The translations under genes and the position numbers were made by a program. Shown piece by piece: positions 1-56,897 of a stretch of DNA of 64,000 nucleotides. The notes under the pieces are model-generated. The model made no database searches. It saw only the letters and a program-made list of their open reading frames with translations, and was not told the DNA's origin. Source of the stretch: Lytechinus pictus (lineage: Eukaryota); NCBI RefSeq assembly GCF_037042905.1, contig NC_087245.1, positions 19,470,001-19,534,000 of the forward strand. Direction: 5' to 3'. Numbering within the stretch: position 1 is the stretch's first letter; each line of letters begins with the position of its first letter.

Positions 1-894
1 GGGGAGTGACTTCTGCAACAGTTACGACAGGTGTCTCATCAGGAACGGCCTCCTCAACTGGAACTTCCTTTGATTCGGGAGTGATTGCGGAGATACCAAC
101 ATCAGGAACATCCTCGATGGGTTCTTGGGCTGGGAGAGTAACTTCTTCAGGCTTCTTGGTCACAGGTGCAATGGTTGCTTCCTGATCCTCTGAGACCTGA
201 GGAGCCTTCTCCACATCGATGACTGCACTATCATCAGTGACAGGTTTCTTCCTCTTCAGGATGGCTCTACCTCTTTTTGGTGACTTGATCTCTTCATCCT
301 CTTCCTCCACCGTGTCAAGGAATACACGCCTTTTATATTCAATATCAGGCTGATCCAGAGGTCGAACCTGAACTTTCAACTTTTTCTCTTTATCTTTCTT
401 CTTCTTCTTCTTCTTTTTTTTCTCTTTCTTCTCTGGTTCAGACTCCTTTTCATCATCATGAGGCAATTCTGGTTCCAAAATTGGCTCTCCCTCTAAATCT
501 TCCTCTGTAAGATCTTCATCTTCTTCTTCATCATCATCGTCATCAAACGGAGCACTTTCAGAAGGACCTTCATCAATTGTCACTGATACAGGCTCCTCTT
601 CTGGCCTATCTTCATCATCAGGAGTGTCTTCAGGTCTGGGAGCTTCCACCGGAACCTCAGCAGCTGGTGGGATATCATGAGGGCGCTTCTCTTGAACATC
701 TGGTCTTGCTTCCTCTGGAAGTGTTTTAGGAACCTCTGGTGCTTCAGGAGCTGGGATTTCAACTGTTACTTCAGGTAATTCCTCTGGTAGGGCTTCTTCA
801 GTTGGAACTTCAGATTTGGGTACTTCTTCCTTAGGCGCAACAACAACCTCCACAGCTTCAACTGTTACAACTTCTTCAGCCGCTGGAGTTGTCT
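1..894 (-). CDS. Titin-like exon (3'-truncated by window): acidic PEVK-like spacer with a poly-Lys tract
   Basis: CCTTACAG|AG (ETTPAAEEVVTVEAVEVVVAPKEEVP...), phase 1. The E/P/V-rich frame appears open to the window edge and is not in the ORF track. Confidence 0.88.
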
Positions 895-1670
895 CTGTAA
901 GGTTGAAGAAAGTTGGTAGGCCCAAGAAGAGTGAAAATGAACATCCAGCAGTAGAATGAAGATGAACATTCAATGCCGTGCATCAATGCTTTGATGGCAG
1001 ACTTGGCAGGCAAAATGCGACTCTTCTAATGATCATGCAACTGTTCCGTGATGATGCAATGGAATGATACTAAAACTAAAACAAGGTGCTTCATGCCGGA
1101 AAAAAATCTTGACAGTCCTCTGTCACAAGCACAAATGATTTGACATTGATTTAACATTCTTGTTGAGAATTACCCTAGTCGCCTGGTCTTGATCATACTT
1201 GGAATGCAGATCATTTCGAGCTGTAGTGAGGTCTGTGATCAATACTATCTTTAAAATATCTCGGGAGTCCTCTTTCATCTTTCTGGAGATACTGCTGCCC
1301 CCTACTTCTCCCGTTTATAATCTCATTATGAGTCCTTTTAATATTTTGGTTTTTGTTCTTTACTTTGGAATATTGGATGCTGTCAAAATAGTTTGTTTAA
1401 TGTTAGTGGTATGTATCAAACATGTTTTTTTATATTTTAATGTATTGAAATATCTGACTTCAAAATTGAGAATTGAAATATTCGTGTTTATCATCGCCGT
1501 TTATGCTTAACTTTTTGGTGTCCTTGCATAAACTTGTTCGATCTTTGTTTTGTTATTATAATTTCATTTAATTACAATGGTTTTGTTTAACTTTTGTTTA
1601 ATAGATTCAGACAATTAAAAAAAAAATGGGACAATTTTTAAGATCTATTCACAAATAAAAATTCTGCTGT

Positions 1671-1965
1671 AATAATAATAATAGTCGGTTCTTGTGTAGC
1701 GCATAACACATTATAAATAACGTCTCTATGCGCTTCCAAAGGACTTGGATATTATTACCCTGGCTTTAGCCCCGCAGCCCTTTATAGCGCTGTGGCATTT
1801 CAAAGAATAAATTCCTGCCAGGTACCCATTCACCTCACCTGGGTTGAGTGCAGCACAATGTGGATAAATTTCTTGCTGAAGGAAACTACGCCATGGCTGG
1901 GATTTGAACCCACGACCCTCTGTTTCAAAGTCTGGAGACTAATCCACTGGGCCACAACGCTCCAC
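1671..1965 (-). mobile_element. tRNA-derived SINE
   Basis: Minus strand: A box TGGCCCAGTGG, B box GGTTCAAATCC, central AACCCAGGTG...AATGGGTACC core, and a 3' AAGCGC...GCGCTA segment with a (TAT)n tail. Confidence 0.85.
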
Positions 1966-2319
1966 AGTAAAGGCAAAATATCACACTTGGGGGAGTAATC
2001 AACCCTGTCATACTGGAAAATTTGTTTTGAATGAGAAATGTATTTTTAAAAATGATTTTGAAAATCCCAACCGCCATTGTTTGTTGTCCCCTAAACGACA
2101 CACAACCATCACGAAGGACAACATGCACACTGCACAATATCTTTACCAACTTCATCAATTTCACATTATGTAACTTCTGGGGGAGCATATTGTCATAGAG
2201 GGTTCACAGTATATCATGCATTCTTTCTTGGGGACTGTACTCCATGGGAAACTTTCGTTTCCAGATGGAACCTGGGAGATAGTAATAGAAAAACAATGAC
2301 AATCCATGCACACATTTGA

Positions 2320-2825
2320 ATGCCATCGCTCTAGACAACATTGTACAACGCCTACTCAGCCTATTGTACGCGAGCAAATGGAAGGTTAAATGTCAAACAT
2401 TTGTGCCGTTGCACACGTACCGTCCATAATGTACCATTGCATGATCAGGAACAAGGTGACGTCACAATTAAAAATTATGATTCAATGCATTGCGCTTAGT
2501 AAGTGCAATACGCGTAGGTCTTACTGGCAAAATGCACATTGCTGTTGCAGATCAGATGTGCATTTGAAAAGATTTTCCTTTTGCTTTCAAAATTTTCTTT
2601 CTTGAAAAAATGATTATTGTTCGTATTTTCTCTAAATTCCGAGGCGTTGTACAACACAAATAGCGAATATTCTTATTCGTGCAATGGTGCAACATTTTGC
2701 ATTCAGTGAAAGAAAGAGACACTCTATTCAACTCGGCTAACGCATCGTTGAATAAAGCCTCTTTCTTTCACCTTTTGCCAAATCTTGAACCATCGCACTC
2801 ATGCCTCTTCGCTATCTGTATACTA
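2320..2825. repeat. CpG-rich interspersed repeat with hairpins (probable non-autonomous DNA element)
   Basis: TTGTACAACGCCT (2341) is inverted at 2642. A long imperfect stem 2679-2732 / 2747-2798 is centred on ATTCAACTCGGCTAACGCATCGTTGAAT. Confidence 0.55.
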
Positions 2826-2840
2826 TACCCTGAGACACAG

Positions 2841-3127
2841 AGGGCGGTATTCTAAAGACAGATTTAACTAAGACCACGGTCTAACTCTGTGCTATAATTA
2901 TGGGAAGCCAAAATTTAAAAAAAAAAAATTTTATATGTCATATTTCTTATATTTACTATTTTGTTTCCTAATGAGGAGAATACTTCAGTTATCATTCTCA
3001 GGCAATTATGAACAATTTGAGAGTCAAATGAGTTAATAAAGTGGATTTGTGCCCCAATTGGCCATCCATAGTTAAACCACAACTTAAAACCAGGATTTAA
3101 TTTAAACCATAGTACAGAATACGGGGT
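2841..3127. mobile_element. MITE-like element
   Basis: Ends GGGCGGTATTCT...TTTAA and TTAAA...AGAATACGGGG are imperfect inverted repeats around an AT-rich interior. Confidence 0.5.
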
Positions 3128-6100
3128 AGAGTACCCTTCTTGGGATCTCCATAGAATGGATGCCCTGTTTTAATAATGTCATGAAAAACATGAACACAGA
3201 TTGTGCTCATGTTCCCTCATGGGAAGAGGGACTATTTGCATGGATTGGCACTGTTCTTTTAGCTACTGTCCACCAAGTTACTATCAGGTAAAATTCCCCT
3301 TTCTCCAAAGGACAGACAGAAAGTACTCATTGAGTACATGACATCAAAAGTCAAGTTTGAGTTGATATTTCCTTTTCAGGTCCCGCCATCTTTAAGAAAG
3401 AGTTGACACGGTACTGTGAACTGTCAATGACAAACAGGTACATATGCTACATGATCAGACAAACACACACAATCACATTGTTGCATGCATAACAATCATA
3501 CACAGAAAACATCAAATGAACATTCACCATGCGCTATTCCCCAGACTAAACTCATTAACTTATTTTCTAATTACGGTCATGCATGAGAAGAAAAATGCTC
3601 TTTTTACTATCTATATCTATAAGAATAAATTAAAATCAACATGGATGGAGCTTTCTATTCAGATGCACCATAAAACAGAATAGACTACCGGTAGCTTTTC
3701 ATAGTCTATTTCTACTGTTTTACAAAAAGGGGAAGTATATGCGTGTAAGTAGAGGGTTGGCATGGGTGCTTTTTAGATCTTTTGGGGATTTACCAAAGAC
3801 GAAAACGAAGTAAACTTGATATAACAGAACTGCTCACCAAATACCCTTTTTTTGCAATTTTAAGAGCAAATAATCTTATTTTGGGGAGAATTTTGCTTTT
3901 TATTTCATTTTACAAGAGGATGCAGATCAGGGGAAATACCAGGGTGGTGCAGGAATGAAGATCAGAAATATGTGATAGACTTTACATAAAGGGAAAACTA
4001 GGCATTATAATGACTACATAGATACACACAAACAACAGAAAGCAGGCAAATTACAATGAAAATTGAAGTAAACAGTGTTTTTGTTATTTGTATAAAAGGA
4101 TATGAAAGAATACAAAATTTATACAAACAGTGGTCTTGGTAGACTGTTTTTTGATACAGTATGCATTATAAAATCCAGTAGAAACATACCTGGTTGTGAC
4201 TTTATATGAATACAATATTTTGAAATTTTAGAAAGAAATATTTGCATGTGAAAATTAAGCCAAAATTAAAGACCAAGCTTTATATGCAATACATAATCCA
4301 TTTTTCTCTTCCCAATACACCAACAAATATTTTGGTTTAGTAAACCTTTCCCAATCTTATTAATTACAATATTTGAAGCACCTATTTACAATAAAATTTT
4401 CAAATTAAATATCAAATTGAATTATATTTAGTCTATTGTTTGCAACATACCTATCTAACAAAAAGATATATATTCTATTGTATATGAATGCAGGAAGTAA
4501 TATGTGCAGTCTAGCTATAAGGCAAGTATTGCATGACCTATTGTCAATCGTAATTAATATCGATTTCATTTACCTCTTAGAAAATATAGACTGTTATACA
4601 ACTGATAGTACTATAGCATTCTAATTTTAGATAAGTAGTTCAGATTATATTTACAATCACCCTAAAATAAAAAAGAAGATTTGGAGTTGCATATCATTTT
4701 AAAATCATTATTTAATGTTTTGGGGTAAAATCTTCATATAAGCTGTGGTTATGAATTTTGAGTTGAAAAACAAAATTCAACATATCCTTTTATTTTCTTT
4801 TGGTTAGGCTTTATATAGTCTAGACTTCATTTTACATGTAGAACATAACGTAACATAAAAAAACAGTAACTAATTTTGAAATAAAATAAAAATAAGTCAG
4901 AACAGCAATGTGGTGAAAATGTAAAATGAATAACTAGTTACTCTTTCCATGATGATTCTCCCCTAATAATATAAAAACAAGACAACAGTTTTGGAAAGAA
5001 CAATACATAGACTTTGGAATGTAAATTACTTGGATGAGTAAAAGAATGGAAAGTTGTCATGTTAACATGAAAGTGATTGTGTACTAATGACTACTTGACT
5101 TCTAAATCAACTTGCCCAACAATAAATCTATTTAAAAACAAATACTGAGAACTAAAATGCACAGACGATCATAACAAAACGAGGATACATGCAGTGTAAA
5201 ACAAACTTTTAACATTCAGATTAACAAAGTATTGTTTCGCCAAGAAATATACCACAAATGCAAAACTTCTACATTTATGCAAACAAACACTAAACTGGAT
5301 ATATTGAAAAATTAAATTGAGATGTACATCATTAATATTTCACACATATTCTTTCTAAATATACAAAGTATATTGGTTACAAAAAGACATCTTATAATCC
5401 ATTAAAAAGTGCAATAAATCCTTGGATTATGTCCTGAATGATAATAATAATTTCTGGAAATGCACAATTTACAAGCTAAGTACATGCCATAAAAGCCACT
5501 AAACACTAACAACTGCAAGATATCACAATACAATATTCACTGTGTAAATACCCCTCACATAATTTCTTTCAAAAATGCATAGGATGATTTGGTCTGAATA
5601 TTACTTGTTTTGAGAAGGAAATGAAAAACATCACACGTTTTATCCATTAAAGTGGAAAAACACAACCAGTAACATTAAACTCATTAAACGCATAAAATAC
5701 ATGCAAGTAAAACTTCCTTATATGACTCCTTGATGAAGTTCATTATGTCAATTGAAAGAGAATTGTTAAATGCACAACTATTTTTATTCCTCAACAGGGA
5801 TGAGGTGCATTGACTGATATCATTCATCTATTGAGAACTTGATTCTTTCACATGCAAACAAGCAGAAATTTGAAAAATATAATTTCTCAAAAACATAAAA
5901 TAGATATGAAAAAAAAACCAATCAATTGATATGAGAAAATCCATGCACAAGTAGACGAAAGCATGCTAACTCATTCGTGCATCATATACAATAAAATATA
6001 TACTACGTATAATTTCTAATTCAAATTTAGAAAAAAAATATTTTCTTAAAAAAAAAATGTTACAAATTATTCAATTTGCCTCATAAATTAAGAAAAGTAT

Positions 6101-6879
6101 TTTTAAATATCCTACTCTCGGCACCAAAGGAATATGAATTAATGTAAAGGTACATGCATTTCTTGAGATACAAATCAATGTGCAATATTTTCAGGAAAGT
6201 TGAATACAAAACTGATGTATAAAAATGCAGCACTTTTGATACAGATTATTATGAATCTATAGTCCATCATTTCAGATGCATAAAAAAAGAAATAAATCCA
6301 AGTACAAAAGGTATTGGGTGTTAATACTGAATCTGTAAGTAATGCTTTGAGAGTCTTTTACAGACTAAATACTTAATTTTTACTTGACCCATATTTCATC
6401 AAGACTGAAAGAGAATTTTAAATGCTGTAAATAATTTTTTTTTTAATTATCTGAATACAGGTACTGGTACTTCTTAGGATACTACTTCAAGAGAAAAAGG
6501 GCACACTAACTTGCAAGAACATACAAAAACATTTCTCCTTTCTAAGAAATAAAAATGTTAAAATTCATCTCTTTTGACTGGTCCCGCTAAAATCTATTGC
6601 ACTTACATGCCCTCCTTGACAATGGAGTAGCACACATCAAGGCTCTTCAATTCATTAAGTCTTTATCTGCCTTGATCCACAAGATTGACAAAAATAACCA
6701 CTTTTGACATTAAAACAAGTACATGCAAACAGCACCCATCCATTGCAAAGTCAGCTGTTTAGAGCTAGAAGGATAGCATTGTATGCCCAAACAGTGAAAC
6801 AAGCCTTCTAGTTCCAAACCAAGTGACACAATATCGGGTTTTAATCCGTTACAAGAATCAACCAATTTAGTGCAGAAGG

Positions 6880-7010
6880 CTGAAGAGCATTTCATGAAGC
6901 AATCTGTAATGATTTCACTGATAATTGATGTAAGCTCATGAATTTGATCGGCTAAGAGAAAATTTGTCAGTGATATCACTCTCAGGGTGCTTCATGAAAC
7001 AGTCCCCTGG
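6880..7010. mobile_element. Short degenerate MITE-like element
   Basis: TTTCATGAAGCA (about 6890) is inverted as TGCTTCATGAAA (about 6988), with an inner TCACTGA/TCAGTGA pair. Confidence 0.4.
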
Positions 7011-7075
7011 TAATCCCCATATAAAGCCTATTGGAAACAGGGTTAAGCATTCCACATAACAAAAAGGTGGATGGA

Positions 7076-7239
7076 CTACAAGAACAAGACCACGTAACAC
7101 ATAGCAATGAATATAACGATGAAAGCTACGATGTCCCATTCCAGTATGTGTGCCAGGGATGCCATACCTTCTGGTTTCATTGCCTTGGTTTCTGGGGTAA
7201 CCTGGTCCTCTGCAACCTCCTGGGGTACAGCTTCAACCT
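7076..7239 (-). CDS. Composite exon: 72-nt internal exon (7168-7239) or read-through terminal exon ending in a transmembrane tail
   Basis: Strong acceptor CCCCTCTTACAG|AG and internal donor GAAG|GTATGG at 7168/7167. Read-through gives GMASLAHILEWDIVAFIVIFIAMCYVVLFL*. Confidence 0.8.
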
Positions 7240-7818
7240 CTGTAAGAGGGGAGGTTGAGAAAGAGAGGAAAAGAGTAAGGGGGTAGGAGGGAGACAAAGA
7301 AAATGAGTGGTAAAAAGAAATAGATGAAAGGGAGTGTTAAAGCAGAGAGATCCAAGACAGGACAAAGAAAGGGGTAGAATATTAAAATGTACAATGGAAG
7401 TCAGGAATCTTGAATCATCTTACAAATAACTATCATTCATCTATTATAGTTTCAGATTTAATGGAATATTTTATTCATAGATATTTACAATTTCCATGGT
7501 TAAATCAAATTTGCAGTTTGGGTAAGATCCTGCAATATGTTAGTCATTAATGGATACATAATCAGGGATAAGAATACATTTTGTCATTGACAGTGACTTA
7601 CTAACTATGACACAACTGTAAAGTCTGTGTCTAGTCTACAAAGCTGAAAAGTTGAATATCAGCAATACCTGCATGTGAGCTACAGTACTACCTTAAGGAT
7701 CTAGCAAAAAATAGAACATCTTGGGCTTTGCCAAACATTCAACATGATTGACAAGAGAGGAGACCCCCCAAAAAAAATATTATCATACCACTCACAAAAT
7801 TCTTTGAAACACACTCAC

Positions 7819-8118
7819 CCTTTTCTGTTGGTAGATGAACCACCACCTTCTCAGTGGGTTCACCGACACCAAACTGGTTGGAGGCACTGACCCGGAAGGC
7901 ATACTCCTCCCCAGGAGTCAGATCAGCGATGGTAAAGACGGGTGCCTTGAGGGTCTCGGCTATCCTCTGCCATGACTTGGTGGCACTGTCCAGCATCTCA
8001 ACGATGTAGGAGGACACCTCCTGGCCTTTGTCCTCCATGATAGGTGTCTGCCAGGTGATGGTGGTGGAGGTGGGAGTTACCTGGGTTGGTTCCAGCTTCC
8101 GAGGTTTGTCTGGGATGT
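7819..8118 (-). CDS. Fibronectin type III domain exon
   Basis: TTGACAG|AC (DIPDKPRKL...TITWQTP...SYIVEM...W...IADLTPGEEYAFRVSASNQFGVGEP), donor G|GTGAGT. Titin-type Fn3 signature. Confidence 0.93.
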
Positions 8119-9257
8119 CTGTCAAGGAGGGTGAGGGGAGGGGATGAAAGAAAGTGATAATGTCAAAAGTTCAGAACATAAAATTTATATTATTGATATA
8201 CCTAGGGTGCAAGGAAGCATGCTGCCAAAGTGAAACTGCAAGGTGGTTGCAAAGAAGCAACAGTTTGAAAATTAAGATAATTTAATAAATGAATGATAAC
8301 GGAAGCACCAAGCTTTAGGAGGTGGAAGGGGCATGGTTTCAGAGCTTGGATCGCCATCAGAATTTGGAAATGGAGCAGTTTTAGTACCTTGTCCTGGCAT
8401 CTGATGTTGAATGGATGTGATATCAGCACTTGCCAGGATATTTTCCAAGAAATGCTGCTGGTTCATATACTGGTCATAAAACTGTTAATACTGGGAATCG
8501 TTACACCCACCTCATTTCTTCTCATCAATTTGAACCATACACAGCATATGAATTAAAACAAGTGTCCTACCTAATTTCAAATCAATAAATATAATTCCAT
8601 ATGAAAGAGGAAATCAATGCATATTTGACAACAATACTCATGTGATTAATAGTCTAAACTCCCACTAAGGAGAAAATGTTAACATTAACCATAGCGTATT
8701 AAAGACCCCTACACTTGAATAACTACATAGAATAACATATAATTTAATTATTTGAGATTCTAATAACCCCCAATGTTGCAAGTAATGGCGAATGATGGCA
8801 AATATAAATTCATTTGTACAGTATGTATTCTTTTAATTTTTGTTTTGTTTTTAAAGAGAGAAATACAGAATCTGTTTAAAGAAAAATAACAAGTACATTG
8901 TTGCATCATGACTAACATAGATCGAAAAAGAGTTTCTCTTACCTGCTGAGTTTTATGGAAAAGGAAAGTAAATATGGTGCAAAGTTCATGACAGAAGCAA
9001 ATTGAAAAAGAAATTGTAATTTGGCATTAAAAGCAATTAATTTTGGAACCTTGTGCTGAATTCATTGCAGTGAAAGCAATTCAGGTTTAGCTTTGTTGAA
9101 TGACCACTCTTTAGCATAAAAAACAAGCTGGAGGAAAGTTTTGAGAAAAGGAATGAACCAAACTCTTCATAAATGTCAGATCTTGATTCTTAAGGGATAT
9201 GAATGCAAAACAATCAAGCTTCTATTTTTTTTTTTTGGGGGGGGTCAAGTCATGTAC

Positions 9258-42942: not shown

Positions 42943-45186
42943 CTATTTATGTTTGGAAGGAATGAACAAAGAAAACAATGTTAATTGGGTGCTTAATTCC
43001 ATAAAAATCAAATATTCACCTTATTATTGTAAGCATCAACATTATGATGCTTAGCAAAGACACAACAAAACTTTGACAGAATTCATTAAGATCAATAAAT
43101 GATACAGCACAAAGCCTACCATCATTTTGAGTGAGGGCATGTGAATGTAAATGTGTTTACTTCTTTTTTTTTGTTTCTGGAGCTACTTCACTAACATTTA
43201 AGTATTTTATTCCTTACAAACTTTCCACATTATCAGACTTTTAAACAGACACAAAATTTGAAAACAAAACAAGGTGTAATATTATACTGCATTAATATTC
43301 AGACGAATATCTGACAGAGAACTAACTTTAATTAGTTGGTGTGGTTTTTTTATGCTTGAGAATATATCAAATTGAAATATCTTTACCTTCTTGATGCCAG
43401 GAGATGTTTACATTGTTACAAGCAGAAGAAATTATAAGATCAGTATGAAAAATACTAGAGAAAATAAGCTCCGCTTAAGACAAGCAATGTGCAAACAATA
43501 AGAGCCACAATGTGTACAACAATGAAAATAAACATTTCATACAAAATCATAATACATCATGCTTACAGCCATCCTATGGAACCCAAACCAAATCTCAATG
43601 AATAGTCAACCTATTTTGATCCCCTGTATGAATTTTATCTTTTCTTCAATTGACCTGACTAGAAAGGTATTAATGATAAGCATATTCCTAGATCTACCTT
43701 ACAAGCAAAGCCATATGAATAGAATTTTTCCCCAAGTTTATCATGTATAAAAGAAAAAGCCTGTAGACAACTGAGAAGTGAATTTTCTCTAATACCGAAA
43801 TTCAAAGGCAAAACAAGAATTCTGAGATATCAAAATGAGAAATAACTGTAAGTTAAAGTGACTCGCGATATGTAATGCAATGTCCACAAGATTCCAAAAG
43901 GCATTTCCATGTCGATCCATAATGTAATGATTGCAAGACTTATCCTATTTCACACTCAAAGCCAATTTAATTAATAACTGAAGAATAACCATGAGAAGAA
44001 ATCATCTATACAACCAGGAGAAAACTAAAGGATTTATACCCTAAAACTTTCTTCACTTTACTTTTTATCTCTCTCACTCTATCCATCTAAAATTTCATAT
44101 TGTTTATTACCATCACCCTGAGTTTTCCTCTCAGATCACATTTAGATAACTTGATGTCATCTTTTTGTGAATTTTTTATCACTTAGTCTCTCGAAATCCT
44201 GACAAAGATATTTGACTAAACACACAATGCGTCTCCTTCATCAACTCCCTCCTTCATAGAGGGTTTTTCAAACAGAATATGTTGATTTAATTTCCTTGTT
44301 TCAAGACTATTCCCACAAAAACGGAAGCCTGATGTATAACGTTTGCTGGAACATGCGGCAAAAATAATAGTGGGCATAAATATAATACAAACGAGCACAG
44401 GCCAACAAGATGTCTTGACCACAAAGATTCACCGACTTCACAATACAATTCATGGACAAAATAATAATATAACATACAAGACTATTCAAATATGTTTGAT
44501 GAGCACCAGCTCTGATTCAAACACATGAACAAGGCATAGAACATCTATAGGCAAGTCATAGATGAGGATCCATATAAAGTGCTGAAGCTTTAATTTTAAA
44601 TCATTCTGATGCTTTTCTGGATTCATGAATTTTTAAGAAAGAAAATGATCACCCTATTTTAAAAAGATCCATCTCCCCATATTTCTTTCACAAAACAGCC
44701 CTGTAAAACCTCTGGTTCATGCTGTGCTCTCTAGCATTGGGCAAAATCATGCATTTTATCATTCATATTGACGATTATAGGTCATATCAAGCTTCGTTTT
44801 ACTTGGACATGTACATGCCAATGAAGAGCTTTGGCTCTTTTTTTCTGCTCCAGCATCTCATCTGACCTAGTTGGTCAATCGCCTTCATTCAGAGCAGATT
44901 TCACAAAATAATGAAAAAGGGTAATAACATTTTCTTTACACTTCTATTCTTTTTAACAATAAAGAATCAAGGAATATCCCTTCTGTAGTAGTACACCTGT
45001 TATTTGCTGATTCCACTTCCATGAGTCAAAAGTGACCAGTAGAGCATAATGCCTATAACAGGCTCAGAAGCTTTCACTGAATTTAACGTTGAACGTTGAA
45101 CAATTTTTCCTTCACACAGCTGCACAGATCGTGTGTGAACAAGCTTGCCATGCAGCATGCTTACTACCAAACATGCCTCTACTCAC

Positions 45187-48100
45187 CCCCTTTCTCAATC
45201 TCAAGTGTAATCTCAGGGTATTCTGTAATGTCAGCAACATCAAGAGCCACCTCTTCACGGTGCTTTTCCTGTGGGGTAACTTTCTGTATGTCAACACTTT
45301 CCTTCTCCACAGAAGTCACATCTAAAGAAATTTCTTCCCTCTGCATTGGTAGAATTTCAAGTGATATGTCAGGGACACTCTCATCTGTTGTGTGAATGGC
45401 CATTTCTGTTTTCTCAATTGGCTTCTGTTTCTGTTCAATGTCAATAGAAACAGTCTGTGTTTCTTGAGGTATTTCCTTGGATGTGACAATAATGCCCACT
45501 TCCTTCTTTTCTTCTAGTTCAATTTCCATCATCTCAGGACCTTTTCCTCCAATTGTAATTTCAGTTGTTTCCCGTATCTCCTTGGGTTCTGGTGCGATAA
45601 TGATATCAATTTGATCTCTCTGTGCTGGACCAACATCTACCACATCTAAAGGCACTTCTCTCACGTCCTGAGGCTGCATATCAAGTACAGCAACCTCCTG
45701 AGCAGCAAATTCCTCACCTTCTTCAGACTTGATTGGAGTAACATCTGTTGGTTTTTCATATATCTTTTCCTCTTTGAACTCAATTGAGACAACTTCACTA
45801 GTCTGGTCAAACAATTGTTTTTCTTCTACTTCTGGAAGTTCAACAGTAGATGTAGGTAACGCTTCAACCGTACTGAGTTTTAATTCACTTGGAATGAGTT
45901 GTTCAGAAACTTGATCAGATGATTTCTCATTTGTTTCAGGAACCTGAGCTCCTGCAGAGGGAAGCACTTTAGCTTCTTCTTTTGATTCATCAATCACTTC
46001 AATCTCAGTCAGATGTTCTAGAGGAATTTGCTCTTCACGTTGTGTTACTTGGACAGTAGTAGTGATTTCTTCAGGTTGAGTACTTTCAATTTCTAGAATA
46101 GTAATTGGTTCTGGGACTTCTTCAACTGATTTTTCAACAGAAATGCTAACATCAGGTTGTTCAAAGTCTTCTTGTACTTCAGTAACCTGCTCTTTTGTAA
46201 CCTCAACAGTTGTTGTTTCAATTTTCTTCTCTATTACATCAACGCCCTTAGTAACGTCTATCTTAAAAGTGGTAGTAACAGATCCATACTCATTGGTACC
46301 AACACATTCAAATTCCTTGTCTGTTTCTTCAAGAGGACTAATAACAAGAACAGTATTACCATCTCTTTCAAAGAGGGTTGTAAACCTAGGACCTTGAATT
46401 TGTCCACCATTGTGAAACCATCGAATAACAGGCCGAGGAGTGCCTCCTATTTGGCATCTCAATAAAACTGTTTCGCCAAGATTTTCTCCTGTACTAGTTA
46501 GAGGCTGTACAATGTGAGGAACTTCGAAAACCTCTTCCTCTACTGGCATAACAACTTCAATGGTCTCCCTTTTCTCAGCAACATCTGCTGTTTCTGTTTT
46601 CTTTATCTCAAGAGTAATTTCTCCATAGTCAGGTTGCTTACCTTCAAAGTCTAGAGACACCTCCGATACTTCAGTCCTAACTGGTTGTTCCTCTTGTTCT
46701 AACTCAACAGATGTAATTTCTGTTGATGTGATGTCCAATTTGAGTTCAGTCTTCTCATCTTTGTCTTGTGGCTGGACTTGGAGAGAAATTTCAGCTTTTT
46801 CTGGCTGACTTAATTCCATTGATATTTTTTCTGTTTCAGATTTGACCTTGATGGACATAACATCTACCTCAAGTTGTTCAACAGTTATTGGTTGAACCTC
46901 CTTAACTTCCTCAGTCTTTATTTCAACTGTTGTTACTTCAGATGGTGTTTCTTCGGGTCCTCTCTCCTCTTTGCTAGGTATTTCAACTAATGCAGTTGGA
47001 AGCTCTTGCATTTCTTCAGGCTTTATCTCAATAGAGACAACTTCACCAGGAGCTGTATATTGCTGTGTCTCTGAAAATTCAGGGAGTTCCACAGTCATGG
47101 CAGGAACTTCTTCAACTTCCTGAGGTTTTATTTCAATTGCTGTAACATCAGATGGTGTTTCTTGAGGTACTGCCTCTTCTTTGTGAGGTATTTCAACTAC
47201 TGCGGTAGGAAGTTCTTGAATTTCTTCAGGCTTTATATCAATTGAAATAACTTCACTAGGTGCTGTATATTTATATGTCTCTTCAATTTGAGGAAGTTCA
47301 ATTGTCATGGCTGGCATCTCTCCAACTTCCTCAGGCTTTATTTTAACTGCTGTTACTTCAGAGGGTGTTTCTTGAGGTACTGCCTCTTCTTTGTGAGGTA
47401 TTTCAACTACTGCAGTTGGAAGCTCTTGAATTTCTTCAGGCTTTATCTCAATTGAAACAACTTCACTAGGTGCAGTATATTTGTGGGTCTCTTCAATTTC
47501 AGGAAGTTCAATTGTCATGGCTTGCATCTCTCCAACTTCCTCGGGTTTTATTTCAATTGCTGTAACTTCAGATGGTGTTTCTTGAGGTACTGCCTCTTCT
47601 TTGTGAGGTATTTCAACAGCAACAGTTGGAAGCTCTTGAATTTCTTCAGGCTTTATATCCATTGAAATAACTTCACTAGGTGCTGTATATTTGTGGGTCT
47701 CTTCAATTTCAGGAAGTTCAATTGTCATGGCTGGTATCTCTTCAACTTCCTCAGGCTTTATTTCAATTGCTGTAACTTCAGATGGTGTTTCTTGAGGTAC
47801 TGCCTCTTTTTTGTGAGGTATTTCAACTACTGCGGTAGGAAGTTCTTGAATTTCTTCAGGCTTTATATCAATTGAAATAACTTCACTAGGTGCTGTATAT
47901 TTATATGTCTCTTCAATTTCAGGAAGTTCAATTGTCATGGCTGAGACCTCTTCAACTTCTTCAGGTTTTATTTCAATTGCTGTTACTTCAGACGGTGTTT
48001 CTTGAGGTACTGCCTCTTCTTTGTGAGGTATTTCAACATCAACAGTTGGAAGCTCTTGAATTTCTTCAGGCTTTATATCAATTGAAATAACTTCACTAGG

Positions 48101-51100
48101 TGCTGTATATTTGTGGGTCTCTTCAATTTCAGGAAGTTCAATTGTCATGGCTGGTATCTCTTCAACTTCCTCAGGCTTTATTTCAATTGCTGTAACTTCA
48201 GATGGTGTTTCTTGAGGTACTGCCTCTTCTTTGTGAGGTATTTCAACTACTGCGGTAGGAAGTTCTTGAATTTCTTCAGGCTTTATATCAATTGAAATAA
48301 CTTCACTAGGTGCTGTATATTTATATGTCTCTTCAATTTCAGGAAGTTCAATTGTCATGGCTGAGACCTCTTCAACTTCTTCAGGTTTTATTTCAATTGC
48401 TGTTACTTCAGACGGTGTTTCTTGAGGTACTGTCTCTTCTTTGTGAGGTATTTCAACAACAGCAGTTGGAAGCTCTTGAATTTCCTCAGGCTTTATCTCA
48501 ATTGAAATAACTTCACTAGGTGCTGTATATTTGTGAGTCTCTTCAATTTCAGGAAGTTCAATTGTCATGGCTGGCATCTCTCCAACTTCCTCAGGTTTTA
48601 TTTCAATTGCTGTAACTTGAGATGTTGTTTCTTGAGGTACTGCCTCTTCTTTGTGAGGTATTTCAACTACTGCAGTAGGAAGTTCTTGAATTTCTTCAGG
48701 CTTAATCTCAATAGAGACAACTTCACCAGGAGCTGTATATTGCTGTGTCTCTGAAACTTCAGGGAGTTCAACAGTCATGGCAGGAAATTCTTCAACTTCC
48801 TGAGGTTTTATTTCAATTGCTGTAATTTCAGATGGTACTTCTTGGGGTGCTTTCTCCTCTTTGCTAGGTATTTCAACTACTGCAGTTGGAAGCTCTTGAA
48901 TTTCTTCAGGCTTTATTTGAATTGAAACTACTTCATCAGAAGTTGCATAGATAATCGCCTCTTCTAGACCAGGAACTTCAACTGTTGCTGATGAAAGCTC
49001 TATTACTTCTTCATGTATCACATCGCTTGGCGCTTTATCAGAGGTTGTTTGTTCTGTGAAAACTATTTCTGTTTTCGTGGCCTCCATTGTTATTGTAGTC
49101 AATTCATCCACTTTCTCAGTTTCTTGCATCACTGGCTTGATATCTTTTTGTGAAACTTCTGAAACAGTTTCTTCAATTTCTGGAACTTCAGCTCCCGCTG
49201 AGGGAAGCTCTAAGGCCTTGTCGGGTTGTTCATCAATAACAAAGTCAATCTCTATTGGATATTCCAGAGGAATTTGCTCTTCACGTTGTGTTACTTGGAC
49301 AGTAGTAGTTATTTCTTCAGGTTGGGTACTTTCAAATTCTACAATTGTGATTGATTCTGGAATTTCTTCAACTGATTTTTCAACAGAAACACTGACCTCA
49401 GGTTGTTCGAAGTCTTCTTGAACTTCAATAACCTGCTCTTTTGTAACCTCAACCGTGGTTGTTTCAATTTTCTTCTCTATTACATCAACACCCTTAGTAA
49501 CATCTATCTTAAAAGTGGTAGTAACAGATCCATACTCATTGGTACCAACACATTCAAATTCCTTGTCTGTTTCTTCAAGAGGACTAATAACAAGAACAGT
49601 ATTACCATCTCTTTCAAAGAGGGTTGTAAACCTAGGACCTTGAATTTGTCCACCATTGTGAAACCATCGAATAACAGGCCGAGGAGTGCCTCCTATTTGG
49701 CATCTCAATAAAACTGTTTCGCCAAGAGTTTCTCCTGTACTAGTTAGAGGCTGTACAATGTGAGGAGCTTCGAAAACCTCTTCCTCTACTGGCATAACAA
49801 CTTCAATTGTCTCCCTTTTCTTAGCAACATCTGCTGTTTCTGTTTTCTTTATCTCAAGAGTAATTTCTCCATAGTCAGGTTGCTTACCTTCAAAGTCTAG
49901 AGACACCTCCGATACTTCAGTCCCAACAGGTTGTTCCACTTGTTCTAACTCAACAGATGTAATTTCTGTTGATGTGATGTCCAATTTGAGTTCAGTCTTC
50001 TCATCTTTGTCTTGTGGCTGGACTTGGAGACAAATTTCGGCCTTTTCTGGCTGACCTAATTCTAGTGATATTGTTTCTGTTTCAGATTTGACCTTGGTGG
50101 ACATAACATCTACCTCAAGGCGTTCAACAGTCGTTGGTTGAACCTCCTTAACTTCCTTGGTCTTTATTTCAACTGTTGTTACTTCAGATGGTGTTTCTTC
50201 GGGTACTCTCTCCTCTTTGGTAGGTATTTCAACTAATGCAGTTGGAAGCTCTTGAATTTCTTCAGGCTTTACTTCAATTGTAACAACTTCGCTAGGTGCT
50301 GTATATTTGAGGGTCTCTTCAATTTCAGGAAGTTCAATTGTCATGGCTGGCATCTCTCCAACTTCCTGAGGCTTTATTTCAATTGCTGTAACATCAGATG
50401 GTGTTTCTTGAGGTACTGCCTCTTCTTTGTGAGGTATTTCAACTACTGCGGTAGGAAGTTCTTGAATTTCTTCAGGCTTTATATCAATTGAAATAACTTC
50501 ACTAGGTGCTATATATTTGTGGGTCTCTTCAATTTCAGGAAGTTCAATTGTCATGGCTTGCATCTCTTCAACTTCCTCAGGCTTTATTTCAATTGCTGTA
50601 ACTTCAGATGGTGTTTCTTGAGGTACTGCCTCTTCTTTGTGAGGTATTTCAACAACAGCAGTTGGAAGCTCTTGAATTTCTTCAGGCTTGATTTCAATTG
50701 AAATAACTTCACTAGGTGCTGTATATTTGTGGGTCTCTCCAATTTCAGGAAGTTCAATTGTCATGGCCTGCATCTCTCCAACTTCCTCAGGCTTTATTTC
50801 AATTGCTGTAACTTCAGATGGTGTTTCTTGAGGTACTGCCTCTTCTTTGTGAGGTATTTCAACAACAGCAGTTGGAAGCTCTTGAATTTCTTCAGGCTTG
50901 ATTTCAATTGAAATAACTTCACTAGGTGCTGTATATTTGTGGGTCTCTTCAATTTCAGGAAGTTCAATTGTCATGGCTGAGACCTCTTCAACTTCTTCAG
51001 GCTTTATTTCAATTGATGTAACTTCAGACGGTGTTTCTTGAGGTACTGCCTCTTCTTTGTAAGGTATTTCAACAACAACAGTTGGAAGCTCTTGAATTTC

Positions 51101-54100
51101 TTCAGGCTTGATTTCAATTGAAATAACTTCACTAGGTGCTGTATATTTGTGGGTCTCTTCAATTTCAGGAAGTTCAATTGTCATGGCTGGTATCTCTTCA
51201 ACTTCCTCAGGCTTTATTTCAATTGCTGTAACTTCAGATGGTGTTTCTTGAGGTACTGCCTCTTCTTTGTGAGGTATTTCAACTACTGCAGTAGGAAGTT
51301 CTTGAATTTCTTCAGGCTTTATTTCAATTGAAATAACTTCACTAGGTGCTGTATATTTATAAGTCTCTTCAATTTCAGGAAGTTCAATTGTCATGGCTGA
51401 GACCTCTTCAACTTCTTCAGGTTTTATTTCAATTGCTGTTACTTCAGATGGTGTTTCTTGAGGTACTGCCTCTTCTTTGTGAGGTATTTCAACTACTGCA
51501 GTGGGAAGTTCTTGGATCTCTTCAGGCTTTATTTCAATAGAAACAACTTCTTCTGGAGTAGCGTACATTCTAGTTTCTTCAACAACTGGAAGTTCAACCA
51601 TTTGTGACGTAATCTCTTCTACTTCACTGGGTTTTAAATCACTTGGTGCAACCTCAGACGTTGTTTCCTCAGTCAGTATGATCTCCCTCTGTGTTGTCTC
51701 CATTATCACTTCCGTCAAGACCTCCACTTTATCAGTTTCTTGGACTATGGGAAGCAGATCTTCTTGCAAAGTTTCTGGTACTCTTTCTTCAACACCAGGT
51801 ACTTCTGCTCCTGCTGCATGAATTTTCTCGGCCCTCTCAGGTTGGTCTGCAGTACCTATTTCAACCTCTGATGGGTATTCTAGAGGGATTTGCTCTTCAT
51901 GTTGTGTTATTTCAATTGTAGAATATATTTCCTCAGGCATGGTGCTCTCTATTTCTATTGCACTTATCGTTTCAGTTACTTCATCCCCCTCAACATGTTT
52001 AATGGTAGATATACTAATCTCAATAGGTTCAGAAACAGTAGTTTCTTCCACTTCAGTTACCTGATCTTTGGTCACTTCAACTCTTGTGGTTTCAATTGTT
52101 TTCTCTTCTGAATCAAGACCTTTTGTCAAATCAATCTTGAAGGTAGTAGAAACTCTCCCATATTCATTGGTACCTACACACTCAAATTCCCTGTCAGTCT
52201 CCTCAAGAGGGTTGATGACGAGGACGGTCTTACCATCCTTCTCAAAAAGTGTAGTAAATCTTGGGCCTTGTACTGGTCCACCATTGTGGAACCATCTTAT
52301 AATTGGCTGGGGGGTTCCAATAATCTGACACTTCAATATAACTGTATCTCCTATATTCTGGCCAATGTTTGTCAATGGTTCAATGATTGATGGTGCTTCA
52401 AAGACCAATTCTTGTTCAGAGGGCTTTTCTACAGGAATATTAATATCCCCTACACCAGAAATTTCTTTCTCTTCTTCAATTTTTTGAACTTCGATGGTAA
52501 TATCAGGATATTCAGGTTCCTGCTTCTCAACAGTCAAAGATACTTCAGTAATTTCAGTGACCTCTTTATCGGGTGCTCTCTCTATTTCTATCGCAACACT
52601 TTCCTTTTCCATCTCTTGTGAAGTGACCTCTATTTCGATATCTTTACCTGGAATTTCCTGCTGAGTAAGGAGAACTTCAAGAGCAACACCTTCCTTGGTC
52701 TCTTGTGTTCTGGCTCCCAAGATAGCATCAGTTATTTCATGTGGTTCCTCTGATTTGATCTCGAGTGAGACAAGTTCACTTGGAGCTGAGAATGTAGTTT
52801 TTTCCTCAACCCGAGATATTTCACCTGCTGCAGCTGGAAAATCTTCAACACTTTCTGGTTTAACTTCAAAAGCTGTGACATCAGCTGGACTTTCATATAA
52901 TGGTGTCTCTTCCTTCTGAGTAATATCAAGGAGCACAGTCGGCAATTGTTTGGCTTCATCTGTTTTAATATCGTCCACTGGTACTTCTACGGAGACTGAG
53001 TAAGGTATCTCCTCTTGCACCTGTGGAACTTTCACTACTTCTTCTGGTAATTGTTCGCTGGCTTTACTTGGTATTTCTGTGAGAGTCAGTTCAGATGGAG
53101 CTTCATAAGGTAATTGTTCTTCTTGTTGAGCAAGTTCCACAACAGTAGTTTCAACGTCTTCTACATCTTCTGGTTTCATCTCGATCACTGCCAATTCACT
53201 CGGCATATCATATATGGTCTTTTCTTCTCTATGAGATATCTCAACAACAGTTGTGCTTACATCCTCCACCTGCTGCGGTTTGATCTCTACAGATATTTCA
53301 CCAGTAGCTCCATACATTGTCTGTTGCTCTACTTCAGAAATTTCTGGCACAACAGTTGAAATTTGCTCCACTGACTGAACTGGTACCTCAATTGAGACTA
53401 CTTCACCTGGAATAGATTGGGAAGTTTGTTCATCCCTCTGAGGGAGCTGAATGTCATCTACTCTGATTATTGCTTGTGTAGAACTAACAGGTGTATCAAC
53501 TTGATCTGTGGTGACTGAAACCTCTACTATCTCGGTCTTCATTTCTGCAGTGACCTCAGAGGTGGTGGTGTCAATGTCTTCTTGAACAGTTTCAATAATT
53601 TCTCTACCAATACATAGCTCTGCTTTGCTTGACACAGTCCCAATAGGACTTGTGCCAATGCATTCAAAAGTGGTATTGTCTTCTTCTTCCGCAGGACTTA
53701 TTACCAGCACTGTGCTGCCATCTTTCTCAATAAGAGTGATGTATCTTTCACCCTGGAGAGGCTGATTATTTTGGTGCCAAACAATATCTGGCATTGGTGT
53801 TCCAGTAATTTGACAAGTAAGACGGACAGTATCTCCAATCTCTGCAGTCTGACTTTCCACATTATGAAGAATGTATGGCTGCTCCTCTTTCACAACTTCT
53901 ACAGCTTCGGGTAAATCTTCTGCAGCAGCATGGACAGCTAATTCAGTGCTGATATCTATTTCTTTTGTCTCCTCTGGTTGGAGCCCTGATATTTCCAGAG
54001 AAATGTCAGGCATCTCAGCACCTTCTATATCAATGCTTGCAAGGGTGGTTTCACGTGGTTCTCCAAAATTTAAAACAGTTTCAACTTCAGTGATAAGACT

Positions 54101-56151: not shown

Positions 56152-56897
56152 CTATAAGATGTATCAAGAAGAAACAGTAAACATGACATCAGAGCTATAC
56201 AGAAATGGTTTCTGGAAGCATGCACTGTGAGGCCATTGATCAATACTTACAAGGTAAATGCAAGGCATGCACTCTCCCAGATGCAGACAGAGGAGAAAGC
56301 ATGATCCCATTCTTGTATGGAAACAATGCAAGCGCCATGCATAAGAGATCAATGAAATATACTAAATAAAAAAAACATCAGAATCCAAAGTCCTTCCTCT
56401 AGCATATCAAATCTGATATTCTAGGTAATACTCTACCAAAATCAGCAGATGCAATGATTCATGCAATCACGTTGATGTAAAACATGTCTTGAAATCAAGG
56501 TACATGCTAAAAGAAATTTCAATGAGCAAATAAAAAGGAGGCTAGCATGCATATAAGTACCATGCCAATGCAAATGCAAGGCTTTTTCTGATAACATTTA
56601 CCAGAAGCAAACGAAGTCAGAAATCAAGACAGCCAAAACATTAAAATATCTAGATATAAATTATAGATGTGACAACAGATGAATCTCAAACAACCTCCAG
56701 ACACCATAAGAAACCCTCAAATACTTGGGTCAAGTAAATCAATAATTCCTTTTTGCCAAACAAATAAAATAAAAAAATGACAAGCTTGTCATTGTTCAAA
56801 ACTCACCTACACCTGGCAAAGAAAAATTTAATTGGTGGTGTCAAGAATCTGTTTATCTGACGGTTAATCGGATCGGGGTCATCTTAGCCACTAACTC

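Follow-up and report, generated by a model that had tools for sequence, protein, structure and literature searches.

A probable composite alternative last exon in a titin/connectin-like gene of Lytechinus pictus, conserved and predicted to end a truncated protein in a tail anchor

Introduction

Titin-family proteins are, to our knowledge, regarded as soluble cytoskeletal springs. Kettin, the short Sls isoform of Drosophila, and the vertebrate titin Novex-3, a truncated isoform made via an internal alternative 3′ end, keep the Z-disc/I-band part without the rest, and we know of no description of either with a terminal hydrophobic membrane segment. In vertebrates, the link between sarcomere and sarcoplasmic reticulum (SR) is provided by obscurin and small ankyrin 1, in which a giant sarcomeric Ig protein is tied to the SR membrane by an anchor that sits on a separate small obscurin-binding protein. 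Other giants of the cytoskeleton, the KASH proteins (nesprins, Msp300), carry a C-terminal transmembrane segment that some of their isoforms lack, and a KASH domain requires a lumenal stretch of about 30 residues that closes with PPPX. At the RNA level, the secreted/membrane switch of IgM is set by competition between a 5′ splice site within a composite exon and the poly(A) site of the next intron. Outside vertebrates, little is understood of how the SR, the endoplasmic reticulum (ER) and the nuclear envelope are kept aligned with the contractile lattice.

Here we analysed a 64,000-nucleotide stretch of Lytechinus pictus DNA (the window; NC_087245.1, positions 19,470,001 to 19,534,000) and describe, in a giant titin/connectin-like gene, an exon that is conserved and probably acts as a composite alternative last exon, yielding a predicted tail-anchored truncated protein. 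As in kettin and Novex-3, the truncation comes from an alternative 3′ end inside the giant gene; unlike the obscurin system, the predicted anchor lies in the giant protein itself. Alternative last exons and tail-anchored proteins are known kinds that are combined here, and the variant itself appears to be new: a literature search found no report of such a membrane-tailed titin-like isoform, and the terms 'transmembrane' and 'membrane' are both absent from PMC12198301, which surveyed connectin/titin evolution in 2025 with the sea urchin included.

Results

The window lies within a giant titin/connectin-like gene

Pfam searches of the gene returned I-set (E 1e-19 to 1e-45), SH3_1 (6.4e-13) and fn3 domains, and the window itself contains giant repeat exons encoding 3669 aa and >1640 aa. 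The Ig exons extend at least 115 kb upstream, and downstream there are further fn3 and I-set matches, with dozens of Fn3 exons on the same strand at a distance of 60–100 kb; no N-terminal end was found in the 120 kb upstream, and three upstream ORFs that look spectrin-like by eye gave nothing above the Pfam cut-off. Long one-strand arrays of I-set Ig domains thus occur together with PEVK-like repeats rich in E, P, V and K, as in the titin/connectin-Sallimus class, and the SH3_1 domain together with this architecture would argue for a cytosolic protein. The features around the alternative ending, all on the minus strand, are as follows.

8118..7819, minus strand: Fn3 exon, phase 1-1 (Pfam fn3, E 7.3e-15); joint at 7819 in 4/4 runs
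7818..7240, minus strand: intron of 579 nt, spliced out of the tail-ending mRNA; joint 7239>7819 (skips 579, CT..AC)
7239..7168, minus strand: PEVK-like mini-exon, 72 nt, 24 codons; in X5 contig record 8
7170..7162, minus strand: 5′ splice site AAG/GTATGG, the decision point; the same bases encode the invariant Gly-Met of the tail
7167..7133, minus strand: juxtamembrane part of the read-through extension, GMASLAHILEWD; inside the AF2 helix 24-53
7144..7133, minus strand: invariant LEWD motif; alignment columns L33 E34 W35 D36
7132..7079, minus strand: 18-residue hydrophobic segment IVAFIVIFIAMCYVVLFL, predicted transmembrane tail anchor; mean Kyte-Doolittle (KD) value 3.19, no charged residue
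7078..7076, minus strand: stop codon TAG, directly after the hydrophobic segment
7075..6218, minus strand: 3′ UTR of the tail-ending mRNA, from RNA depth and X6 contig record 15
6447..6442, minus strand: ATTAAA, candidate main poly(A) signal; position agrees with the coverage fall
6250..6245, minus strand: AATAAT, second candidate poly(A) signal, from the sequence
894..2, minus strand: exon that would follow in the long form, rich in E, P and V and still open at the window end; phase-compatible with the mini-exon donor

The Fn3 exon closes with the donor AAG G/GTGAGT (last exon base 7819), and the mini-exon opens after the acceptor ...ctcttacag/AG (first exon base 7239), translates as (E)VEAVPQEVAEDQVTPETKAMKPE and closes with GAAG/GTATGG, a phase 1 donor at 7168/7167; phase 1 is maintained from the Fn3 exon through the mini-exon to the exon at 894. 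Past this donor the frame reads GMASLAHILEWDIVAFIVIFIAMCYVVLFL, i.e. 30 codons followed by the stop TAG. Both the acceptor and the read-through into 18 uncharged hydrophobic residues and a stop, which a preliminary description of this DNA had pointed out, are present, the acceptor being proven in addition by the spliced RNA joint 7239>7819. The same description had called the donor a consensus site, which does not hold for this gene: GTATG occurs in 0/31 of its Fn3-exon GT donors and GTRAG in 25/31, and the 5′ splice site at 7168/7167 is weak and off-consensus here.

Transcripts run past the weak donor and end in the following intron

RNA data comprised two stranded raw-read runs, X19 and X20, from rRNA-depleted total RNA libraries that include pre-mRNA, and two contig sets, X5 and X6, from a related organism (organism B). 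For organism B, 63 mismatches were counted. Depth in X19/X20 was low (about 3–11), and the values below, given as X19/X20, are those of the first mate on the plus strand, the orientation matching the gene; the reverse orientation gave at most 0.39 in these bins.

The spliced joint 7239>7819, GT..AG as read on the minus strand, was carried by 2 reads in X19, 4 reads in X20 and one contig each in X5 and X6. Depths were 0/7.94 and 0.42/3.35 in the Fn3 exon bins, 0/0 in the intron bin 7426–7700 and 0.64/3.34 in the mini-exon bin, and then 2.83/7.56, 4.26/11.3 and 1.11/6.19 in the bins of tail and UTR, with 0.01/0.43 in the next one, bin 6051–6325; bin 5776–6050 did not exceed 1.38, and the remainder of the 6.3-kb intron (3301–5775) was at about 0. 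Tail and UTR were therefore covered at least as deeply as the Fn3 exon, with the upstream intron removed, and the tail-ending mRNA is the dominant form in the two RNA runs X19 and X20. In organism B, a single contig of 1307 nt at depth 90.2, X6 record 15, spans 8101..7819 and 7239..6218 unbroken, so that the Fn3 exon and mini-exon run on into the tail and roughly 860 nt of UTR. Transcription past the 7167 donor, whose absence the preliminary description would have counted against its proposal, is thus borne out by X19/X20 coverage that continues to about 6400 and by the same form in X6, and the mRNA bypasses an internal 5′ splice site and ends in the following intron, as a composite terminal exon does.

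Most X19/X20 coverage stops at about 6450–6300 and a minority reaches about 6218, where X6 record 15 also terminates. Because of this fall, the UTR measures about 0.65–0.86 kb instead of the 3.5 kb suggested earlier; the minus-strand AATAAA at 5788..5783 that had been put forward with it exists, but RNA coverage drops off well before it. No cleavage (poly(A)) site was reported in the read mapping of the four RNA sets, and ATTAAA at 6447..6442 is a candidate for the main poly(A) signal.

Organism B expresses the exon at 894 (490–896 in X5 record 1, 433–877 in X6 record 9); in X19/X20 its bins 551–1100 had depth 0/0. In X5, contig record 8 fuses exactly the 72 nt of the mini-exon to the Fn3 exon and ends exactly at 7168, tail depth is 0 and the downstream exon is present. 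The joint 7168>894 was absent among the 15 of 51 joints listed, so the mini-exon might be used solely as a terminal exon.

The hydrophobic ending is exceptional among intronic read-throughs

An extremely improbable reading is that the tail is a chance ORF in a T-rich intron, its RNA signal coming from unspliced pre-mRNA. Total-RNA libraries do contain pre-mRNA, and 16% of intronic read-throughs stay open for at least 30 codons; the neighbouring intron bin and positions 3301–5775 are, however, at about zero depth while tail and UTR are at exon depth. We read this strand from 33,522 starting points in introns, reaching 676 distinct stops, and asked for last 18 residues free of D/E/K/R/H/N/Q/P with a mean KD of at least 2.5. 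Two stops only gave such an ending, this tail (3.19) and one at 43457 (2.57); the tail ranks first of the 676 intronic stop-anchored ORFs, and none of 306 read-through starts at 'GGT' yielded such a tail. The alternative ending is beyond chance, and, with the peptide also conserved in four diverged lineages (below), the chance-ORF and pre-mRNA readings were rejected on RNA profile, hydrophobicity rank and conservation.

AF2 modelled residues 24–53 as a single helix (block pLDDT 88, 96 and 89; 88–96 over the hydrophobic segment) and the mini-exon as disordered. The layout, one hydrophobic segment at the C-terminus within about 30–40 residues of the end, is the one by which tail-anchored proteins are recognised.

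The tail is conserved and the mini-exon diverges

A homology search gave 5 matches at E ≤1e-3, of which four contain the tail: P0004 (5.6e-17), P0005, P0006 and P0008. The fifth, P0007 (E 8.1e-6), a 1337-aa repeat protein that matches query residues 11–39 only, was left out of the alignment. The same pattern, EGM..LEWD..F..CY..F, recurs in four diverged lineages with the stop within 0–2 codons, and over the relatives' ORFs the frame is kept and the stop lies 0–2 codons from its position in the window in 7/8; the exception is P0009, whose stop is lost and whose ORF extends by 34 residues. A conserved hydrophobic ORF and stop, on which the preliminary description had staked its proposal, are therefore found. 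P0009 (tail ORF) and P0003, an orthologous Fn3 ORF with 81% identity, share one ENA contig of 13,835 nt, the placement of the tail ORF in a titin-like gene having been checked for 1 of the 4 tail-bearing lineages. P0002 and P0003, the two matches of the Fn3-exon search, and the cluster member P0013 were set aside as tail evidence, being genomic ORFs that read into the post-Fn3 intron and uninformative on the tail.

Among the five aligned sequences, 12 columns are invariant and 11 of them fall within residues 24–53, including F44, C48, Y49 and F53 of the hydrophobic segment. Pairwise identity was 14–25/30 for the tail versus 4–13/24–30 for the mini-exon (4/24 to 13/24 between the window and its relatives), which over all 10 pairs amounts to 181/300 (60%) versus 68/263 (26%); by these comparisons the mini-exon is a putative fast-evolving spacer. 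The relatives' hydrophobic segments have 18–20 residues, KD 2.45–2.98 and no charged residue, and substitutions in the tail preserve hydrophobicity (KD 2.45–3.19 over five lineages).

The 812-Mb genome has a single copy of the tail. In a word-indexed protein collection, the 54-residue query of mini-exon plus tail had no match among proteins of 96–2000 aa (21 word candidates, none scored) or of 29–95 aa; the best ESM Atlas score with the tail was 0.77, under the lead threshold, and Pfam assigned the tail (P0001) to 0 families. Likewise no sequence relation was found with the sarcolemmal membrane-associated protein SLMAP, which differs as a coiled-coil/FHA protein of <100 kDa from the Ig/Fn3/PEVK spring here.

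Conservation starts sharply at E-G-M, invariant in 5/5 aligned sequences. This onset is what would be expected if the tail were an independent single-pass micropeptide of 29 residues initiated at the invariant Met, a size comparable with that of the small SERCA regulators, and small SR micropeptides have a similar length and layout. This is nevertheless very unlikely: in the spliced X6 record 15 the giant ORF reads uninterrupted, and in the same frame, into this Met, no coverage in the upstream intron hints at a separate start (bin 7426–7700 = 0), G-M is accounted for equally by the GTATG of the splice site, and Pfam, which includes phospholamban and sarcolipin models, returned 0 families for P0001.

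Nor is the tail at all likely to be a GPI-attachment or other secretory signal, cleaved off an extracellular Ig/Fn3 protein. GPI signals consist of small residues, a spacer and a C-terminal hydrophobic stretch, which G-M-A-S, an 8–9-residue spacer and 18 terminal hydrophobic residues fit superficially, and Fn3 domains followed by a membrane anchor are common in adhesion molecules. The probability of this reading is nonetheless very small, as the SH3 domain and the titin-type PEVK/I-set architecture point to the cytosol, the candidate omega+2 residue is P or L in 3/4 relatives, and cleaved signals do not usually show the position-by-position conservation seen in this tail at the invariant F44, C48, Y49 and F53.

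A KASH domain was rejected on sequence: the stop directly follows the segment, relatives add 0–2 residues in place of about 30 lumenal ones, and the 34-residue extension of P0009 lacks a terminal PPPX. The earlier exclusion of KASH for want of a lumenal tail and PPPX therefore stands.

More serious, and still improbable, is a reading that accepts the alternative ending and its conserved peptide but gives the helix a role other than spanning a membrane: protein docking, a lipid-droplet or monotopic anchor, or a degron limiting the level of the truncated isoform. Eighteen residues are rather few to cross a bilayer, and the invariant polar and aromatic positions (LEWD, C48, Y49) suggest a specific contact beyond greasiness. 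Spanning is favoured by the 18–20 consecutive uncharged residues of KD 2.45–3.19 in all five lineages, by the position of the segment at the extreme C-terminus as one continuous modelled helix, and by the Trp/Asp boundary just ahead of it, typical of a membrane interface; a degron is unlikely as the sole 3′ end in two RNA runs.

Discussion

The preferred reading, a composite alternative last exon with a tail-anchored product, makes the site at 7168/7167 the decision point. If it is used, the mini-exon would be an internal PEVK-like exon and the spliced mRNA would run on for more than 100 kb through the giant repeat exons, then Ig exons and then the long Fn3 series. If it is left unused, translation would continue for 30 codons and polyadenylation would follow about 0.65–0.86 kb past the stop, so that the truncated product would hold only the upstream Ig/PEVK/SH3/Ig/Fn3 part, ending in the conserved juxtamembrane LEWD and a very hydrophobic helix of 18–20 residues with nothing after it. 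Such a choice, if regulated, would follow the logic of the IgM switch, a composite-exon 5′ splice site against an intronic poly(A) site, with the polarity reversed: here read-through and proximal polyadenylation would give the predicted membrane form, and splicing the soluble long form.

This layout would be that of a tail-anchored membrane protein, whose helix leaves the ribosome only at termination and would be captured post-translationally and inserted by the GET/TRC40 or EMC route into an ER-derived membrane, in muscle presumably the SR; tail-anchor hydrophobicity reportedly dictates targeting. The elastic protein would remain cytosolic and might tether the filament lattice to the membrane. 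More tentatively, a megadalton titin-like spring could itself be an integral membrane protein, both in this animal and in four or more diverged relatives, helix-anchored in the ER/SR or the nuclear envelope; it could be what this part of the gene mainly produces in some tissues or stages, and dock to a specific membrane partner through LEWD...CY; we hold this stronger version to be possible and somewhat against expectation.

One weak splice site appears to double as two codons of an alternative protein end. The product would rank among the largest tail-anchored proteins and would put post-translational insertion pathways to a severe test. Being both conserved and expressed, the predicted tail-anchor ending offers a concrete candidate tether for internal membranes and, if the proposal is true, the animal would have a built-in filament-to-membrane tether, in which one polypeptide does the job of vertebrate obscurin and small ankyrin together.

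A tail-ending mRNA is produced by reading through the mini-exon donor

The preliminary description had proposed a choice between splicing and read-through at a donor downstream of the Fn3 exon, and every sequence element of that proposal was found in place. The tail denotes the 30-codon read-through extension, which ends in an 18-residue hydrophobic segment.

Elements of the switch site (slash, splice boundary)
8118..7819, minus: Fn3 exon, ending AAG G/GTGAGT, phase 1
Between Fn3 exon and mini-exon, minus: 579-nt intron
7239..7168, minus: 72-nt mini-exon, acceptor ...cttacag/, encoding (E)VEAVPQEVAEDQVTPETKAMKPE
End of mini-exon, minus: donor GAAG/GTATGG, phase 1
From 894, minus: next exon, phase compatible with the mini-exon donor
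7078..7076, minus: stop of the read-through frame GMASLAHILEWDIVAFIVIFIAMCYVVLFL, donor skipped

Stranded, rRNA-depleted raw reads from two runs carrying the species label of the window (X19 and X20) were mapped on window positions 1-8250 together with contigs from two runs labelled as another organism (X5 and X6).

RNA depth by 275-nt bin (first mate on plus, X19/X20)
7976-8250, Fn3 exon: 0/7.94
7701-7975, Fn3 exon: 0.42/3.35
7426-7700, upstream intron: 0/0
7151-7425, mini-exon: 0.64/3.34
6876-7150, tail and UTR: 2.83/7.56
6601-6875, UTR: 4.26/11.3
6326-6600, UTR: 1.11/6.19
6051-6325, beyond main end: 0.01/0.43
5776-6050, beyond main end: 0.07/1.38
551-1100 (two bins), downstream exon: 0/0

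The transcripts expected past the donor at 7167 are present with the neighbouring intron removed, both in the X19/X20 depths and in the contig X6 record 15, and because the opposite orientation had depths ≤0.39 throughout, the tail and UTR reads are oriented as the Fn3 exon. The joint 7239>7819 (GT..AG, minus strand) was found in 2 reads of X19, 4 reads of X20 and 1 contig each of X5 and X6. Decisive is X6 record 15 (1307 nt, depth 90.2), which runs from 8101..7819 into 7239..6218 uninterrupted and contains the Fn3 exon, the spliced mini-exon, the unspliced donor, the tail, the stop and ∼860 nt of UTR. Since it differs from the window at 6 of 283 Fn3 bases, and by 63 differences plus 14 gaps over the remaining 1022 bases, the X6 organism is related, not identical. 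That the invariant Met of the tail begins a separate micropeptide of 29 residues is improbable, as the spliced contig is in frame without any start of its own for it. The tail-ending mRNA form is almost certainly real; it was the only 3′-end observed for this part of the gene in X19 and X20, and is no minor by-product in these samples (depth 0 in the downstream exon, 3-11 over tail and UTR).

Coverage dropped by half in bin 6326-6600 with almost none below 6326, and was ∼0 over 3301-5775 (top single bin 2.16, X20). A hexamer scan gave the following:

6447..6442, minus: ATTAAA
6250..6245, minus: AATAAT
5788..5783, minus: AATAAA, the sole one in the region

From the coverage fall-off, the X6 contig end at 6218 and the hexamer positions, the UTR measures ∼0.65-0.86 kb, in place of the ∼3.5 kb suggested earlier; no cleavage site was seen in the mapping of the four runs. 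Bin 276-550 (4.4/5) was flagged as a skipped repeat (375-432). Separately, a repeat in the 6.3-kb intron, at 1651-2200 (and 2476-3300), had a huge RNA depth, 4750/4212 (X19/X20) in bin 1651-1925; it resembles tRNA in its GGTTCGAA-type letters, its loose ends number in the thousands, and it is probably a SINE-like family, highly expressed or very abundant.

The mini-exon donor is off-consensus

A regular expression for Fn3-exon ends yielded 33 matches, 31 after removal of 2 mis-hits without GT, with donors GTAAG (19), GTGAG (6), GTAAA (2), GTAGG (2), GTGAT (1) and GTTAG (1). GTATG occurred in 0 of the 31, so GAAG/GTATGG, formerly described as consensus, is off-consensus for this gene. For such a choice to be regulated, the 5′ splice site preceding the poly(A) site would need to be weak. 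The candidate splice 7168>894 is indicated indirectly by its phase fit, by contigs and by conservation: the X5 contig joining the Fn3 exon to the mini-exon ends after exactly 72 mini-exon bases, in X6 the tail form (depth 90.2) occurs alongside the downstream exon (record 9, depth 23.3), and E-G-M, the translation of AG/GTATG, is invariant in 5/5 aligned sequences. No 7168>894 joint was among the 15 listed of the 51 joints from the X19/X20/X5/X6 mapping. In X5 the tail had depth 0, yet the downstream exon was present (record 1, 490-896, depth 8.3); a hole in contigs proves nothing.

The tail is exceptional among intronic frames and conserved in relatives

Translation from all 33,522 intronic positions on the same strand to the next stop showed that 16% of starts open at least 30 codons, so an open frame alone carries little weight. 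Only two stops were preceded by 18 residues devoid of D/E/K/R/H/N/Q/P with a mean Kyte-Doolittle value ≥2.5, namely the tail (3.19) and one at 43457 (2.57); the tail ranked first of 676 distinct stops for a hydrophobic C-terminus, and 0 of 306 'GGT' read-through starts gave such a tail. Because the preliminary description could choose freely across the whole window, this ranking alone is modest evidence, and becomes strong once independent evidence converges on the same donor.

The 54-residue query (mini-exon plus tail) found no match in a word-indexed protein collection, while HMMER, run exhaustively against 1.84 billion representatives, returned 5 at E ≤1e-3. P0007, a 1337-aa repeat protein matching query residues 11-39 only, was left out. 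The other four, P0004 (E 5.6e-17), P0005, P0006 and P0008, are short ORFs on genomic contigs, each with a polypyrimidine-tract 'junk' start, a PEVK-like stretch and the tail at the end (...EGMPSLAQILEWDLVAFLAIFIAMCYVVLFL, ...EGMLSLADYLEWDVVAFLTIFVSVCYVILFLLF, ...EGMLTIASVLEWDIVGFLAMFVAMCYFVLFLIL and ...EGMVKVGSLLEWDLAAVLAFFIASCYIVCFWMI, respectively).

Identical residues, tail and mini-exon
P0004 vs window: 25/30; 13/24
P0005 vs window: 20/30; 6/30
P0006 vs window: 19/30; 4/24
P0008 vs window: 14/30; 8/24
All 10 pairs: 181/300 (60%); 68/263 (26%)

Of the 12 invariant columns in the five-sequence alignment (P6, E24, G25, M26, L33, E34, W35, D36, F44, C48, Y49, F53), 11 fall within residues 24-53, and in all five sequences the hydrophobic segment spans 18-20 residues, contains no charged residue and averages KD 2.45-3.19. 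The tail frame is unshifted at protein identity down to 47% and replacements are conservative (I/L/V, A/G/S/T), which argues for selection on the peptide rather than on an RNA or DNA element; judged from these sequences, the tail peptide is very likely under selection. A chance ORF seen through pre-mRNA is hardly credible, being contradicted by the RNA mapping, the intronic-ORF ranking, the HMMER matches and the identity comparison.

The expected conservation held for the hydrophobic ORF in the four relatives, and for the stop, 0-2 codons from that of the window, in 7 of 8 relatives' ORFs (P0004-P0006, P0008-P0012). It failed in P0009, a close relative of P0004, where W replaces the stop after ...CYVVLFL and 34 further residues follow in frame. 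This counts against strict stop conservation, and may reflect allelic variation, an error, or a lineage whose lumenal tail is short; a transmembrane segment plus 34 residues would still be a tail anchor. P0009 lies on a 13,835-nt ENA contig, equal in length to the contig of P0003, an Fn3 ORF 81% identical to the Fn3 exon of the window, which suggests, without proving it, that the Fn3-then-tail order is kept there. The tail is single-copy in the 812-Mb genome of the window.

The tail-ending isoform belongs to a giant gene

The window covers a portion of a very large gene on the minus strand, with I-set Ig exons, giant E/P/V/K-rich repeat exons, one SH3 exon and one Fn3 exon (Pfam: I-set 1e-19 to 1e-45, SH3_1 6.4e-13, fn3 7.3e-15), the largest ORFs being 3669, 1952 and >1640 aa. 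The 3669-aa ORF is a single exon (45179-56188, minus) of very regular repeat units, with minus-strand AATAAA at 210-nt spacing (46917-48807 and 50163-51213) and 105-nt steps at run ends, indicating a 70-residue PEVK-like unit, with Ig domains interspersed, recently amplified in tandem.

On the 3′ side the 894 exon carries on along the same strand, followed by:

L003:965-10000 and L004:1-6744 (flanking pieces, G000:C1:19440001-19460000), minus: giant single-exon repeat ORFs of 3012 and 2248 aa, presumably same gene

These consist of ...EEIYQLLKNVEPVEYEKVLRKKGIIQYKAIRQHIERV...-type repeats matching Pfam THB (PF18362, tri-helix bundle; E 1.3e-21, 76 bits versus a cut-off of 25). The THB fold is known from the M-domain of myosin-binding protein C, and such an array looks unusual within a titin-like gene. 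Several Ig exons are also on the same strand, as are dozens of Fn3 exons spread across the next 100 kb (fn3 4e-19 and 3e-34; I-set 8e-10). Upstream, same-strand Ig-type exons extend at least 115 kb (G000:C1:19534001-19654000, L012-L023); three ORFs at the far end had no Pfam match above cut-off. If all of this, from 115 kb upstream to 100 kb downstream of the window, forms one gene, the locus may be larger than 280 kb, and the tail-ending isoform would retain the upstream Ig/PEVK/SH3/Ig/Fn3 part but lack a further repeat region and all of the Fn3-rich part.

The tail is predicted to anchor the protein in a membrane

In an AlphaFold2 model from the five-sequence alignment, residues 24-53 form a single helix with block pLDDT values of 88, 96 and 89, compared with 46, 50 and 63 in the mini-exon. 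Invariance of LEWD, C48 and Y49 suggests a specific contact beyond mere greasiness. A helix that does not span, acting as a docking helix or degron, is unlikely. That the protein is secreted and the tail a GPI-type signal is very improbable, given the SH3 domain, omega+2 candidates that are bulky or proline, and the residue-level conservation. A KASH domain, already dismissed in the preliminary description, is ruled out because the hydrophobic segment ends the chain and PPPX is absent.

Tail-anchored segments of such kind typically reach the ER post-translationally by GET/TRC40 or EMC, and mitochondria receive less hydrophobic, basic-flanked tails. The present tail has one very hydrophobic segment, placed right at the C-terminus, and this segment would emerge from the ribosome no earlier than termination; an acidic/aromatic boundary (EWD) precedes it and no basic residues follow it. 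From what is known of tail-anchored proteins, we infer post-translational delivery to the ER via GET/TRC40 or EMC. Taken as a whole, the alternative ending probably yields a tail-anchored giant spring in an ER-derived membrane.

If the locus is one gene, the tail-ending isoform would be comparable to the truncated titin isoform Novex-3. It would likewise resemble kettin, called 'a short isoform of sls' in PMC11081514. The nearest working analogue is SLMAP, presented in PMC6443179 as a tail-anchored muscle protein family made by alternative splicing. Literature searches, which did not extend to subscription journals or genome annotations, turned up no membrane-anchored isoform of titin, Sls or connectin, and 'transmembrane' or 'membrane' had 0 occurrences in a 2025 survey of connectin/titin evolution including sea urchin (PMC12198301). 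Alternative last exons, tail anchors and truncated titin isoforms are each of a known kind; their combination appears to be new, and would yield a giant spring that lies in the cytosol with its C-terminus fixed in an ER-derived membrane, in muscle the SR.
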